From: Gammaproteobacteria bacterium
Lineage (GTDB): Bacteria > Pseudomonadota > Gammaproteobacteria > Tenderiales > Tenderiaceae
DNA length: 64,000 nt
Assembly: GCA_021731365.1 (NCBI GenBank)
Contig: JAKFXL010000018.1
Location: 940 to 64,939, forward strand
Direction: 5' to 3'
Shown: positions 47,300-51,350 of the stretch, one piece after another
Layout of the letters: the number at the start of each line of letters is the position of its first letter
Numbering within the stretch: position 1 is the first letter of the stretch
Translations under genes and position numbers: made by a program
The notes under the pieces: model-generated
Database searches by the model: none
What the model was told of the DNA's origin: nothing
Seen by the model: only the letters and a program-made list of their open reading frames with translations

Positions 47300-47445
47300 G
47301 GTTTTATGTGGCGCTTGCCTGGTTTCCACGGTCCTCCGTGGGCTTGTGCCCGATCTGGGGGTAAATCCATACCTCACTTCACTCATCACCCTCCGTCTGC
47401 ATTCCCATACCCACAGGGCACAAGCGCCGGAGCGTGGGAACGAAA
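47300..47445. repeat. hairpin-rich palindromic repeat element, locus A (about 1 unit)
   Basis: GGTTTCCACGGTCCTCCGTGGGCTTGTGCCC...CATACC.CACTTCACTCATCACCCTCCGTCTGCATTCCCATACCCACAGGGCACAAGCGCCGGAGCGTGGGAACGA. It shares the CCCACGGTCCTCCGTGGG and TTCCCAC...GTGGGAA hairpins with loci B and C. Confidence 0.8.
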
Positions 47446-47498
47446 GAAATTTTCAACACACACTGATCAAGCCTGTTTATATACAGTGCTTAACAACG

Positions 47499-48243
47499 CT
47501 ACGTTACAGGCAATCGGATAAATGCACGGGCAATATGAAGTAAACGATTTTTCCGTGCTACCTCAACACCCTCACGACTACCGGCACTGTTGGTATTCCC
47601 CTCTATAGAGGTAAATGAATTACCCTGCGCCGACTCAACAATGCCGATATGCGAAAAGGTGAACACCACAATATCACCCTTGCGAGGCCGGTACAGCTCA
47701 CTTTTAGCATTAAAAACAATACACTTTTTGCGTCTTGGCCCAAATATTTAAAAAACGATTTACTGACGCCTCACGAGGTGCTGTCACCCCATGAAAACTA
47801 GAAGACTGTTTTATCAACAGTTGAGTACAGTGAGATACAAATGCCGCGCACCACGGATACCCATCCGTCGTCGTCGGGGTTAACTTAAGATCATCTGCGG
47901 AAAAAATCTCTTGTAGACTTTTAGATGTGCCAGCACGATTATCCCACGTCTCCCTAACACCAATATACTTCGCCGCAATATCAGCCAGAACACTCTGAGC
48001 TGAATTGACTGACGTAGTGTTGGTAACCGGCTTAGCGGAGATCAAATGTGCATTAGTCGCTGGACCAACCACACCATCCACAGCAATACCAGCACTCATC
48101 TGAAACTGCTTTACAGCTTTTTCAGTAGCTTGACCAAAACTACCATCAACAACCATTGGCGGTGACAGCTTAAGCAGCCCATTCAAAAGTACTTGCAACT
48201 TTTTAACAGCCTCTCCTCTCATTCCCCTTTTTAATATTGCCAC
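47499..48243 (-). pseudogene. peptidoglycan-binding-domain / TIGR02594-like cell-wall hydrolase gene, apparently frameshifted
   Basis: The 177-aa ORF 47710..48243 has a PG_binding_1-like N-terminus (..LKRGMRGEAVKKLQVLLN..VDGSFGQATEKAVKQFQ..GIAVDGVVGPATNAHL) and ..GYPWCAAFVSHC... The family C-terminus (..AKSELYRPRKGDIVVFTFSHIGIVESAQGNSFTSIEGNTNSAGSREGVEVARKNR..) continues in another frame, down to a stop near 47499. The shift lies near the A/T homopolymers around 47700-47715. Confidence 0.6.
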
Positions 48244-48258
48244 AGTTGACTCCTAATC

Positions 48259-48741
48259 CTATTTATTCGCGCTGTAGAGCATCCATAAATCACCGGGGAT
48301 GCCTTCAACCTCACTGTGATTTTCCAAAATCAGCAATCCATCATTCGTCGCAGAACCGGTTATACCCGGCCCTTGAAATTGATGATCATCAATACAGGTA
48401 ATCGAGTATGTTTTTTCTGATATTGGCAATCCCGGCTCATTGAAGCTACGGCTAAGCTGCCATGTTTTATTTTTTTGAACCAAATTTACACTGGAAACTG
48501 CGCCACCCATTTCAATACGGTAAACCCCAGCAGCCATTACTTTGGCCACCTTAAAAGTGGAAAAAGAGACAACGTCAGTCCCCACCAACACATCATCGAT
48601 CTGAGCGCCTTCATTTGTAGGGTTGCACACCACAGCCTGAGGAGCACTCAATGCCACTATCGGTGACTCAAGTTCAGAGGAACATCCCGATACCAGAGCA
48701 AGACCCAACAGCATCGAACACAAATATCCACACCGTCTCAT
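48259..48741 (-). CDS. hypothetical lipoprotein (160 aa)
   Basis: MRRCGYLCSMLLGLALVSGC (lipobox L-V-S-G-C). It lies directly upstream of the hydrolase gene on the same strand. No recognisable domain. Confidence 0.6.
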   Translation of the reverse strand: MRRCGYLCSMLLGLALVSGCSSELESPIVALSAPQAVVCNPTNEGAQIDDVLVGTDVVSFSTFKVAKVMAAGVYRIEMGGAVSSVNLVQKNKTWQLSRSFNEPGLPISEKTYSITCIDDHQFQGPGITGSATNDGLLILENHSEVEGIPGDLWMLYSANK

Positions 48742-48828
48742 AAAACACTCCCAACAACGCCAATACTGTTCATAACAGCTCCTATAAAATCCTAATAGAG
48801 ATCAAAAAACCAATACCAACGAAGAGTA

Positions 48829-49057
48829 ACCCTGGTACCCACGGTCCCCCGTGGGCTTGTGCCAAATCTGGGGGTAAACCCATACCGCGCTTCACTCATC
48901 ACCCGTCGTCTGCATTCCCACGCCGGAGCGTGGGAACGAGAGGCTTCGGTTTAGCTGCCGTGGTGGCTGAAACCACCCTGGTTCCCACGGTCCTCCGTGG
49001 GAACCCATACCGCACGTCACTCATCACCCACCGTCTACACTCCCATACCCACACGGA
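48829..49057. repeat. hairpin-rich palindromic repeat element, locus B (about 2 units)
   Basis: ACCCTGGTACCCACGGTCCCCCGTGGGCTTGTGCC...GCCGGAGCGTGGGAACGAGAGGCTTCGGTTTAGCTGCCGTGGTGGCTGAAACCACCCTGGTTCCCACGGTCCTCCGTGGGAACCCATACCGCACGTCACTCATCACCC... is nearly identical to parts of locus C. Confidence 0.85.
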
Positions 49058-49177
49058 ATATAAATACAAGTGTTTGGAAACAATAACTTAATACACCCTA
49101 CCCACCACCTACCTGTATTTTCACTAGGGACTAATATATCCTTATCCTTCATACCAATATATTCGGAGTCATCTCAA

Positions 49178-50287
49178 ATGGATAACTATCAAATAGTAGG
49201 TACATTTTCAGTACAAGCCAAAAAAACCGAGGACGGCAAACACAGTTTCACTGCTACATCTAAGAACCCCCCCACCAAACAGCCAGTATCCAATCAACCA
49301 CTGGATATCACCTCATCATATACATGCTATCAACCAATCAATCTGCACAGCACCTACTCTGAATACAGAGGCATGATATGGGGGAAGATCGATCTCGCTG
49401 CAGGTGATATCTGGCCCGACTGGGATGGTCAGAGAATCATCATAGAGGCCAGCCCAAGTCGCATTATATATATGAAATACGGAGGGACCAGCAGCCAAAG
49501 CATTTATATACAACCCCCAAAAGACTTTATTACCAACGTAACAACCGACACATTTAATCGAAAAGCCGCAGAAAAAACCAAACTAACCAAAAGACTCGCC
49601 GAATGGGAAGTCCATTTCCTCACTGGTTTTTTAGGGGCCGCACACTGGGCCGGACTTGCTACTGTACTGGGCACGGATATATTGCAACAAGTCATAAGCG
49701 AAAGAAAACGTAATACAAGTTATCGTGAAGCCGCCAACGACATCATTGATGTTGATAAAGATTTAAAAGAAATAGCCCCTGTATTTAGAGGAAAAATATA
49801 TGAAGCCCTTATCGGAGGTATAAAAAGCAGGCCTGGAGAAAAAACCAAAACCCTCATACAAACACTTCCACCACTCATCTTAAAGGATGACAAAACCACC
49901 GGAAGGATTGCGGGCGCAATTGCGGCAAAATTCATGTTCGGCACTAACAACAAAATAGTGACCTTTTTTGTCTTACAAACCATCACCACACAAATTGCAC
50001 TAAAGAGTCCATCAAAACTACCCCCAGCTGTTGGCTTAACACTTCAGGACTCATTAAAAAAGCTGCTGCCTGATATTGATAAACTGGATTCAACCAACCC
50101 CAATGACCAAAAAATATTAATAGATCAGATGGTTGACCTGTTTCAACAGCTGGGCGTCACTGTCAGCGCACATGAATCCACGACCATTGCAGACGAGATC
50201 CGCAGAAACCCTGAACGCATATCAAACAACATGAAAAAACTTGGCAACGCATTTGAAAAAATTGTTAATGCAGATCAAGCCAAATGA
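49178..50287 (+). CDS. hypothetical protein (about 369 aa), AT-rich, no recognisable domain
   Basis: ATG at 49178 with a GGAG SD (MDNYQIVGTFSVQAKK...). It has amphipathic or hydrophobic helical segments (FLTGFLGAAHWAGLATVLG; GRIAGAIAAKFMFG; VTFFVLQTITTQIAL). It is the first gene of a three-gene same-strand cassette. Confidence 0.55.
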   Translation: MDNYQIVGTFSVQAKKTEDGKHSFTATSKNPPTKQPVSNQPLDITSSYTCYQPINLHSTYSEYRGMIWGKIDLAAGDIWPDWDGQRIIIEASPSRIIYMKYGGTSSQSIYIQPPKDFITNVTTDTFNRKAAEKTKLTKRLAEWEVHFLTGFLGAAHWAGLATVLGTDILQQVISERKRNTSYREAANDIIDVDKDLKEIAPVFRGKIYEALIGGIKSRPGEKTKTLIQTLPPLILKDDKTTGRIAGAIAAKFMFGTNNKIVTFFVLQTITTQIALKSPSKLPPAVGLTLQDSLKKLLPDIDKLDSTNPNDQKILIDQMVDLFQQLGVTVSAHESTTIADEIRRNPERISNNMKKLGNAFEKIVNADQAK

Positions 50288-50664
50288 GGACAACACCAAC
50301 ATTGCTGTCACTCTTACTGTCCGCCCTAATCACTCTACCCATCGTATGTGCTGCCGGTCAGGCTCAAAAAGATACCACGCTATTTATACAAGAGTCTGAG
50401 CGATTCTGCATGTTATTTAAGCCAAACGTCTGGACTGACATGAAAAAAGATCATCAAGGTGCAGCACTCATGGATGAATTTCTCAGACGCGTCGACGAAG
50501 CTGTCAATACACCCGAGTTTGAGGCCATACTTGACCAACAATACAAACAAGAAAAAACACCGACTGCACTCTATCAATACTATATAAAAGAGATCTCGGC
50601 GCTCACCGCCATACCATTTTCCTGCCCCGATTTAAAAACATATTTTGAAGAATCGATCAGATAA
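50284..50664 (+). CDS. hypothetical secreted/periplasmic protein (126 aa)
   Basis: The start overlaps the previous stop (ATGA). It has a signal peptide MRTTPTLLSLLLSALITLPIVCAAGQA. Confidence 0.5.
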   Translation: MRTTPTLLSLLLSALITLPIVCAAGQAQKDTTLFIQESERFCMLFKPNVWTDMKKDHQGAALMDEFLRRVDEAVNTPEFEAILDQQYKQEKTPTALYQYYIKEISALTAIPFSCPDLKTYFEESIR

Positions 50665-50679
50665 CCACAACCCCTCTCA

Positions 50680-51030
50680 TTGACTAAAAAAATGACACAG
50701 AACCATTCGAACTTATTATCAAAAACCGCCATCTTCTTGTTAACAGCGGCCAACATTGCATTGGGCATACTGGTGGCAATTTTGATGATGGGCGGTGAGT
50801 TTCTCAACATAGCACTTGACGTACACAGCCAGGAGACTAAAAGCACGTTTGACGTTTTTTTTACAACCTACGTTCTTCATCCCGCATCGGGGATAGTCTA
50901 TGTATCCATGTTCATCGGCTTGGCCGTGTATCAATATAAAATTAAGTCACGTTTCTATCAGATTATGGCAAACATTGTGATGTTAGCTCTATCACTCATT
51001 ATTTTACTCAAGATATTTTATTTATATTAG
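50680..51030 (+). CDS. hypothetical small membrane protein (116 aa, about 3 TM)
   Basis: TM helices (AIFLLTAANIALGILVAILMMGG; IVYVSMFIGLAVY; IMANIVMLALSLIILLKIFYLY). It is the last gene of the cassette. Confidence 0.5.
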   Translation: MTKKMTQNHSNLLSKTAIFLLTAANIALGILVAILMMGGEFLNIALDVHSQETKSTFDVFFTTYVLHPASGIVYVSMFIGLAVYQYKIKSRFYQIMANIVMLALSLIILLKIFYLY

Positions 51031-51091
51031 TAAGTTGGGGTTCGTGCCATCACCAACACACCCAGCATCAACCCAACCTACAAGCTGATAC

Positions 51092-51350
51092 CACCCTGGC
51101 TCCCACAGCCCTCTGTGGAAATCCATACCGTACTTCACTCACCAGCCGCCGTCTGCATTCCCATACCCACAGGGCACAAGCGCCGGAGCGTGGGAACGAG
51201 AGGCTTCGGTTTAGCCGCCGTGATGGCTGAAATCACCCTGGTTCCCACGGTCCTCCGTGGGAACCCATACCGCACGTCACTCATCACCCGTCGTCTGCAT
51301 TCCCACGCGGGAGCGTGGGAACGAGGAAAGCGCCGGAGCGTGGGAACGAG
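51092..51350. repeat. hairpin-rich palindromic repeat element, locus C (about 2.5 units)
   Basis: Contains the 11-bp-stem hairpin GGTTCCCACGG-TCCT-CCGTGGGAACC, the 9-bp-stem hairpin TTCCCACGC-GGGA/CGGA-GCGTGGGAA, and a tandem GCGCCGGAGCGTGGGAACGAG x2. It ends 4 nt before the hsdS stop. Confidence 0.85.

Follow-up and report, generated by a model that had tools for sequence, protein, structure and literature searches.

The locus studied here lies in a 64,000-nt stretch (the window) of contig JAKFXL010000018.1 from a gammaproteobacterium of the family Tenderiaceae (assembly GCA_021731365.1), where a type I restriction-modification (R-M) operon on the minus strand is interrupted by hairpin-rich repeats. 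Together with two gene modules, the repeats occupy the stretch from hsdS to the abiE-hsdR end of the operon, and comprise six elements (five full or partial units and one half unit) in three clusters, A (47319-47444), B (48832-49056) and C (51096-51350). The order is hsdM-hsdS, cluster C, three open reading frames (ORFs) on the plus strand, cluster B, a lipoprotein-like ORF and a peptidoglycan hydrolase on the minus strand, cluster A, abiEi-abiEii and hsdR (Table 1). A first-pass annotation of the window had given this layout and a hairpin repeat family at three loci correctly, and every sequence it quoted was found at its given place. Its suggestion that the repeats are repetitive extragenic palindromic (REP) elements or MITEs (miniature transposable elements with inverted repeats) was also right, as the same units flank the gene of a REP-associated tyrosine transposase (RAYT) in the orthologous locus of a relative. 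Our results show that the three clusters are very probably REPINs, i.e., inverted REP doublets with a variable spacer of about 30 nt, which belong to a domesticated RAYT transposase.

The repeats are confined to this part of the window. When up to 2-3 mismatches were allowed, matches to three core motifs were found only within 47323-51349, while 0.00-0.15 matches were expected from dinucleotide shuffles, and neither pattern searches with the core motifs nor a fuzzy scan of the whole window detected a further unit in the rest of the 64 kb. This agrees with the earlier statement that the housekeeping parts of the window lack the repeats. A repeat search of the window grouped the elements into a 125-nt family (48921-49045 and 51181-51305, 94% identity) and a 90-nt family (47318-47407 and 48831-48920, 89% identity), and found GCGCCGGAGCGTGGGAACGA in five copies. 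A short-read contig from SRR10388063 (L001) is 100% identical to window positions 47422-44824 and stops within unit A, i.e., the repeats break short-read assemblies of the source organism.

Each unit follows the same plan. The left half reads ctgg-TTCCCACGG-TCCT-CCGTGGGAA-cccatacc and is followed by a spacer of about 30 nt, after which the right half reads tgca-TTCCCACGC-NGGA-GCGTGGGAA-cgag, with the loop GGGA in the intact unit C2. When reverse-complemented, the right half becomes ctcg-TTCCCACGC-TCCC-GCGTGGGAA-tgca, which matches the pattern of the left hairpin, so that the two halves are one REP element in opposite orientations. The repeat search likewise returned the halves as inverted 34-nt arms with 79% complementarity. 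A left hairpin with loop TCCT and flanks ctgg/cccatac, combined with a right hairpin with loop NGGA and flanks tgca/cgag, makes the unit an inverted REP doublet, which is the definition of a REPIN.

The stems are 9-11 bp long and the loops 4 nt, and they include the 11-bp stem GGTTCCCACGG/CCGTGGGAACC and the 9-bp stem TTCCCACGC/GCGTGGGAA that had been noted before, as well as the long-range pairing GGGCTTGTGCC/GGCACAAGC of the longer variant. Folded as single-stranded DNA (ssDNA), unit C2 (51233-51326) forms two hairpins at -26.5 kcal/mol (z = -5.1), while the long unit A (47317-47446) forms a single end-to-end hairpin at -27.5 kcal/mol (z = -4.3). Long and short forms are combined in a mosaic fashion among the units, and several look decayed. 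A 22-nt insertion (CTTGTGCC...GGGGGTAA) is found in the left hairpins of units A and B1, and a 17-nt insertion, TACCCACAGGGCACAAG, in the right hairpins of units A and C1. The left stem of C1 has a G>A / C>T change that is compensated, and the tandem units of clusters B and C are connected by a 37-nt linker.

Table 1. Repeat units, linkers and genes of the hsdS-hsdR gap and its borders. Positions refer to the window unless a contig handle is given; L126 is the metagenome contig with the orthologous locus.
Feature	Position	Strand	Details
REPIN A, long form	47319..47444	+	left REP ctgg-TTTCCACGG-TCCT-CCGTGGG with inserted CTTGTGCCCGATCTGGGGGTAA
REPIN A, right REP	within 47319..47444	+	TTCCCA-(TACCCACAGGGCACAAG)-CGCCGGAGCGTGGGAA-cgaa
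REPIN B1	48832..48940	+	left REP with insertion; right REP TTCCCACGCCGGAGCGTGGGAA-cgag intact
B1-B2 linker	48941..48977	+	AGGCTTCGGTTTAGCTGCCGTGGTGGCTGAAACCACC; paralogue 51201-51237; inside the 94%-identical 125-nt family
REPIN B2, truncated	48978..49056	+	left REP 48982-49003 perfect; spacer kept; right REP lost past TCCCATACCCACACGG
REPIN C1	51096..51200	+	left REP degenerate, CTCCCACAG-CCCT-CTGTGGAAA; right REP carries the TACCCACAGGGCACAAG insertion
C1-C2 linker	51201..51237	+	member of the 125-nt family
REPIN C2, intact reference unit	51238..51325	+	ctgg-TTCCCACGGTCCTCCGTGGGAA-cccatacc ... tgca-TTCCCACGCGGGAGCGTGGGAA-cgag
Extra half REP	51330..51350	+	GCGCCGGAGCGTGGGAACGAG; ends 4 nt short of the hsdS stop codon
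hsdM	52671-54992	-	type I R-M operon; 79% nt identity to L126 hsdM
hsdS	51355-52674	-	type I R-M operon
Three-gene cargo module	49178..51030	+	369 + 126 + about 116 aa; between clusters B and C
Lipoprotein-like ORF	48259-48741	-	160 aa; between clusters A and B
PG_binding_1 + endolysin-like (cysteine-peptidase-like) hydrolase	about 47480-48243	-	between clusters A and B
abiEi	46323-47126	-	far side of the variable gap
abiEii	45410-46330	-	far side of the variable gap
hsdR	42142-45405	-	78% nt identity to L126 hsdR
Three-gene module in other genomes	L139 8001-9873; L141 5333-7255; L142 8001-9806		

The link to a transposase came from metagenomes. The central 29-mer of the unit had no match across one genome per species (185,579 species), and in JGI metagenomes it matched only two contigs, L126 and L127, both with the same locus. 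L126 (139.8 kb, of which the repeat comparison covered 12.8 kb) is the counterpart of the window locus, as shown by the 78-79% nucleotide identity of hsdM and hsdR and by the alignment of the hsdS-repeat junction. Its gene order is hsdM, hsdS, two units, DUF6933, two units and a partial one, a 176-aa ORF, one REP, Abi_2 and hsdR. A linker related to that between B1 and B2 is also present. The REP units of the window and L126 are 87-93% identical, which is above the identity of the flanking genes. The 176-aa ORF matches the NCBIfam equivalog model NF047646, "REP-associated tyrosine transposase", with 95.7 bits (cut-off 80, E = 2.3e-27), and has no Pfam match at 1e-3. In an alignment to the E. 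coli transposase TnpA-REP (4ER8), HLH stands opposite HMH and EY opposite DY115. By this alignment, the protein keeps the HUH motif and the catalytic tyrosine of a RAYT.

The RAYT of L126 has 5541 homologues at E <= 1e-10, mostly 176 aa long. The best 120 of these 5541 are 73-86% identical to it and come from Methylomonas, Methylotuvimicrobium, Thiodiazotropha, Sedimenticola and Pseudomonadales, and several homologues already carry the name RayT in their sources. The hairpin flanks the RAYT gene within about 100 bp in all eight independent homologue contexts examined, which include six homologues that were looked up individually (L128, L129/130, L131-133, L134, L135/136 and L137/138) and L108. 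Three of the contigs (L128, L129 and L130) have tatgca-hairpin(NGGA)-cgag 25-140 bp upstream of the start codon and ctgg-hairpin(TCCT)-cccatacc 12 bp past the stop. The same adjacency was seen with tblastn in five loci of an unbiased scan for the hairpin (L108, L013, L067, L085 and L092), which have a RAYT gene or pieces of one next to it. One of these loci is from Planctomycetota (L108, 4283-4951), where a RAYT 48% identical to the gammaproteobacterial one lies between two hairpins with the same flanks.

In that scan, the bare hairpin TTCCCACGS-N4-SCGTGGGAA was found in at least 120 stretches of the one-genome-per-species collection. Among the matches listed, the hosts include Methylobacter, Methylotuvimicrobium, Thiodictyon, Thiodiazotropha, Sedimenticola and Pseudomonas, and beyond Gammaproteobacteria, with the same flanks, also Planctomycetota, Desulfobacterota (Desulfobacterales), Hydrogenedentota, Chloroflexota and others. 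The 143 loop-oriented hits among the matches listed give the REP consensus (C/A)TCG-TTCCCACGC-TCCN-GCGTGGGAA-YGCA, of which the left REPs of the window are a CTGG...CCCA variant. The single unconstrained stem position is complementary in 146 of the 146 unbiased hits listed; the stem of the REP is under selection. Some loci hold doublets of the window type (Tenderia L101, L038, L061). The REP arms are conserved, while the spacer differs among the units of the window, Methylotuvimicrobium sp. KM2 and Tenderia. When 2480 ORFs around 120 hairpin loci were clustered, nothing emerged beyond generic neighbours, namely response regulators, ABC ATPases, thioredoxin-like proteins and RND pumps; the hairpin thus sits in ordinary intergenic DNA of those genomes. 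This clustering showed no protein partner, and the RAYT link came solely via the metagenome match. Literature matches to the sequence strings were limited to eukaryotic RBP-J/Su(H) binding sites and primers.

Where a RAYT is present, the repeats can be numerous. Methylotuvimicrobium sp. KM2 has 46 hairpins in 20 kb around its RAYT, mostly in tandem REPIN arrays with the flanks of the window units, and these arrays occupy nearly every gap of the MSHA-type pilus gene cluster beside the RAYT. Two of them (L128, 3175-4016 and 5243-6725) hold 7 and 9-10 units, which repeat every 123 and about 163 nt. Other RAYT homologues are located in pilus clusters, next to purB or next to MFS-nirB. One of the latter (L134) lies beside MFS-nirB-nirD genes that are syntenic with window positions 58695-63935 (73-74% nucleotide identity). 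In two type I operons that are unrelated to each other (L126, 4620-5150; L137, 5834-6376), a RAYT with a REPIN array lies between hsdS and hsdR; the HsdR proteins of these operons differ (1107 aa in L126 versus 792 aa with EcoEI_R_C in L137).

Several arrangements of the repeats were noted in passing. In L137, a called 186-aa "gene" (5235-5795) consists of a REPIN array with one frame open along its length, and REP translations such as ...HSHAGAWERE... likely seed spurious protein families. A REP variant with a 24-nt insertion in the hairpin (TTCCCAYGTGACCGTAGGAAATGCYCTTGGTGCTCCCGCGTGGGAA) is common to L126 (3500-3545 and 4428-4475) and L137 (about 5165-5215). In an Amphritea metagenome-assembled genome (L060, 3736-5170), single REP hairpins start two repeated segments of about 300 bp. 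By eye, these segments look like copies of the 3' end of a HlyD-like gene. Each lies ahead of a small AT-rich ORF, and the arrangement resembles an array of orphan cassettes. Pseudomonas brassicacearum (L079, 4307-5200) has five tandem 218-bp repeats, each with the REP and two hairpins of the GACGC-NNNN-GCGTC type, and the REP is paired with a GGGACGC-NGGA-GCGTCCC hairpin at many other loci.

The units fit the published definition of a REPIN, a pair of inverted REPs whose arms are conserved and whose spacer varies, and which is tied to a single-copy RAYT (bioRxiv 10.1101/2021.07.10.451892). In the window, the units would accordingly be non-autonomous elements of a single-copy domesticated HUH/Y1 transposase, which, on the model of E. 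coli TnpA-REP and IS200/IS605 elements, would bind the REP hairpin on ssDNA, cut beside it, and copy or move the REPINs. The home of the RAYT in this lineage would be the hsdS-hsdR gap of a type I R-M operon, with RAYT and REPINs resident in this chromosomal neighbourhood across the clade and REPINs building up between the genes close to the RAYT. In the strain of the window, the RAYT would have been lost from the locus, and foreign AT-rich cargo (the three-gene module, and the hydrolase with the lipoprotein-like ORF) would have come to lie in the gaps. As REPINs would persist only outside genes and near the RAYT home, they would mark every module boundary, and the partitioning of the island is a by-product of their survival in intergenic DNA at this site. 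The first-pass annotation had argued that a REP scattered through ordinary intergenic regions would make the link to the island coincidental. At family level the hairpin is indeed scattered in this way, e.g., between pilus genes and next to purB. In the lineage of the window and L126, on the other hand, copies with this particular spacer are confined to the hsdS-hsdR gap within the 64 kb and the 12.8 kb compared. This gap is the RAYT site in a relative. The link to the locus is thus real, but for a different reason from the one first given.

Some observations weigh against this interpretation. No RAYT is encoded in the 64-kb window by tblastn, which makes the cognate enzyme of the source genome putative only, and the window shows just three clustered REPIN loci. 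The REPs on either side of the RAYT in L126 are in direct orientation and not in the usual inverted one. The family does not carry the classical GTAG tag found on REPs of E. coli and Pseudomonas, as the consensus of the 5' flank in the 143 oriented hits listed is (C/A)TCG, and the flanks of the window units are CTGG or, on the other strand, CTCG. Finally, RAYT-dependent cleavage and mobilisation of this REP family is proposed by analogy.

Other functions of the repeats have to be weighed against a REPIN-RAYT origin, and one of them is compatible with it. The clusters might serve as passive substrates for homologous recombination, by which cargo in the hsdS-hsdR gap is swapped, deleted or duplicated. 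The two 94%-identical blocks bracket the three-gene module in direct orientation, the window and L126 share REPIN clusters at equivalent places with different cargo between them, and the mosaics of long and short forms suggest gene conversion among copies. However, the homology extends over about 125 nt only, neither recombinant junctions nor alternative arrangements were found, and the differing cargo is explained equally well if modules were inserted independently at a site known as a hot spot for defence genes. We therefore regard this role as possible, though rather doubtful. A more specific version, suggested by the earlier description of the repeats as cassette boundaries, is that the units are attC-like or composite-element ends and that the genes between them are moved by a recombinase or the RAYT. 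Hairpin repeats do bracket two AT-rich modules (45-46% GC compared to about 51-55% in the adjacent flanks), and relatives of RAYT act on single-stranded hairpins, as do integron integrases. However, homologous three-gene modules in three other genomes (L139, L141 and L142/143) have no REP hairpin nearby even when 4 mismatches are allowed, so the module moves without the repeats. The two modules of the window are also oppositely oriented, and the same hairpins occur between housekeeping genes elsewhere. The core sites of attC have the consensus RYYYAAC ... GTTRRRY, which the units lack; their ends read CTGGTTCCCAC... and ...GTGGGAACGAG. Nor was an integrase found among the ORFs tested in 42-60 kb, which encode hsdRMS, abiE, a hydrolase, a kinase/phosphatase and an MFS transporter or have no Pfam match. 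Cassette ends are thus very unlikely. A further idea is that a RAYT-REPIN module between hsdS and hsdR acts as a capture platform for defence genes, whose REPIN arrays would offer ssDNA hairpin sites or homology for the insertion and exchange of foreign modules. The cases are the two unrelated type I R-M operons with a RAYT (L126 and L137) and the RAYT-less window, read as a remnant, and we consider this very unlikely.

The units could also act mainly as RNA, i.e., as a small RNA family, as terminators or insulators, or as mRNA-stabilising 3' hairpins. Their hairpins are stable and one stem position covaries, and E. coli REPs are described as stabilising upstream mRNA and attenuating transcription (PMC3733652). 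The covariation fits DNA hairpins equally well, however, and the first proposal of a structured small RNA gained no support from Rfam: at gathering score the whole window matched only tmRNA and tRNA-Leu, and at a permissive E <= 10 the region 47200-51450 gave chance-level matches only (miRNA and Streptomyces sRNA models). The terminator or insulator proposal fared no better. No hairpin is followed by a T-run, and the four terminator-like sites in 47000-51600, as many as expected from shuffles, are all outside the repeats. The position of the clusters relative to transcripts is also inconsistent, as they are found at 5' ends, at 3' ends and between divergent genes alike. An RNA-level role is therefore unlikely. 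Least credible is that the units are MITEs with terminal inverted repeats (TIRs) that derive from a conventional DDE insertion sequence. The long unit A does fold end to end as a MITE would, but the HUH/Y1 RAYT is the sole protein found consistently beside the hairpin, and no recurrent DDE transposase was present in the ORF clusters around the 120 hairpin loci.

The REPIN-RAYT systems of Pseudomonas fluorescens SBW25 and of Group 2/3 RAYTs (PMC3116915; PMC5581495; bioRxiv 10.1101/2021.07.10.451892) share with the present family two short palindromic REPs in inverted orientation, with arms that are conserved and a spacer that varies, a highly conserved RAYT whose gene is flanked by its own REPs, and extragenic copies that include tandem arrays. 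The present family differs in having its own REP sequence without a GTAG tag and in its distribution, as the 22-nt hairpin is common to several phyla while described REPIN families are lineage-specific. Its RAYT also lies within a type I R-M operon in this lineage, and the window has REPINs without a RAYT. The REPs of E. coli, organised as bacterial interspersed mosaic elements (BIMEs), and TnpA-REP (4ER8; PMC3479197) are similar in their mosaic hairpin clusters of alternating orientation with short linker motifs, and in an HUH and tyrosine enzyme that recognises an ssDNA hairpin, with which the L126 RAYT aligns at conserved catalytic residues. However, the similarity between the proteins is weak (E = 0.004), GTAG is lacking here, and the stem and loop sequences are unrelated. 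In lacking GTAG, the family is nearer to the non-GTAG repeats around RAYT-like genes of Di Nocera et al. (2013; PMC3733652). Their TIRtrons/TIRYTs consist of a RAYT-like gene flanked by palindromic repeats without GTAG, are reported in Planctomycetes among others, and have repeats in moderately abundant families. The protein described here differs in that it passes the NCBIfam RAYT equivalog model. None of the searched motifs occurs in the text of that article, so the likeness to TIRs is by description and not by sequence.

Two further comparisons are analogies. Integron attC sites are likewise hairpin-forming imperfect palindromes between promoterless-looking gene modules, but no integrase is among the ORFs tested in 42-60 kb of the window, the units have no R''/R' core sites, the modules point both ways, and the same cargo occurs elsewhere without the repeats. 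The NIME/dRS3 elements of Neisseria are hairpins of the ATTCCC...GGGAAT type which alternate with short repeat segments and form mosaic arrays bordering variable genes. The likeness to them lies in the hairpin type and in the mosaic arrays beside variable genes and is analogy only, as stem length and sequence differ. A relation to NIME/dRS3 with DNA uptake sequences was also considered and rejected, since no variant of these sequences is enriched in the window. REPINs of Neisseria are mentioned in bioRxiv 10.1101/2021.07.10.451892.

The REPIN-RAYT system is of a kind already known, and this family adds a new member without changing how REPs are understood to work. Only two points are mildly unusual, namely that the hairpin is conserved across phyla and that the RAYT turns up repeatedly in the variable gap of type I R-M operons. 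The recurrent home of the RAYT beside defence genes offers a modest, concrete hint at what RAYTs do for the cell, and if a capture platform were true, a domesticated HUH transposase would have a role like that of integrons. For annotation, the 90-130-nt units should be marked as REPINs and not called as genes, as happened with the array in L137. The 94%-identical blocks around the three-gene module could also promote loss or exchange of the module by homologous recombination.

The cargo genes are poorly covered by reference collections. PADLOC, PHROGs and Pfam recognised just the endolysin-like PG_binding_1 protein, whose frame is interrupted by stop codons near 47700, reflecting either a pseudogene or a mistake in the assembly. 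The three-gene module has no Pfam family above cut-off, no PHROGs family and one marginal PADLOC match (E = 0.0034). Its 369-aa protein has 13 homologues in 5.8 billion clusters, and the same two small genes follow it in the three other genomes, so that the module is rare but conserved. Its surroundings resemble defence islands, with a Fic protein and an HTH_3/Peptidase_M78 protein nearby (L139) or with Mrr and a type I R-M operon that includes AAA_13 (L142/143). It occurs there without the hairpin and does not belong to the repeat system. The N-terminus of the second protein looks like a signal peptide, and the third protein resembles a membrane protein. The module is a candidate for an uncharacterised defence or toxin-immunity system.

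Outside the gap, no integrase was found between the tmRNA gene and the MFS-nirB genes. The tmRNA gene (41578-41937, tag ANEDNYALAA) directly abuts hsdR. Beyond the R-M operon, 55562-58594 encodes a 413-aa ORF without a Pfam match and a fusion of a PP2C phosphatase with a Ser-Thr kinase. The GC skew changes sign at about 52 kb while the genes stay on the minus strand. In addition, GGCAACGACACCCTCAACGG is repeated 4-5 times in the window, as expected for the RTX-type GGxGxD repeats of a large secreted protein encoded elsewhere in the window.

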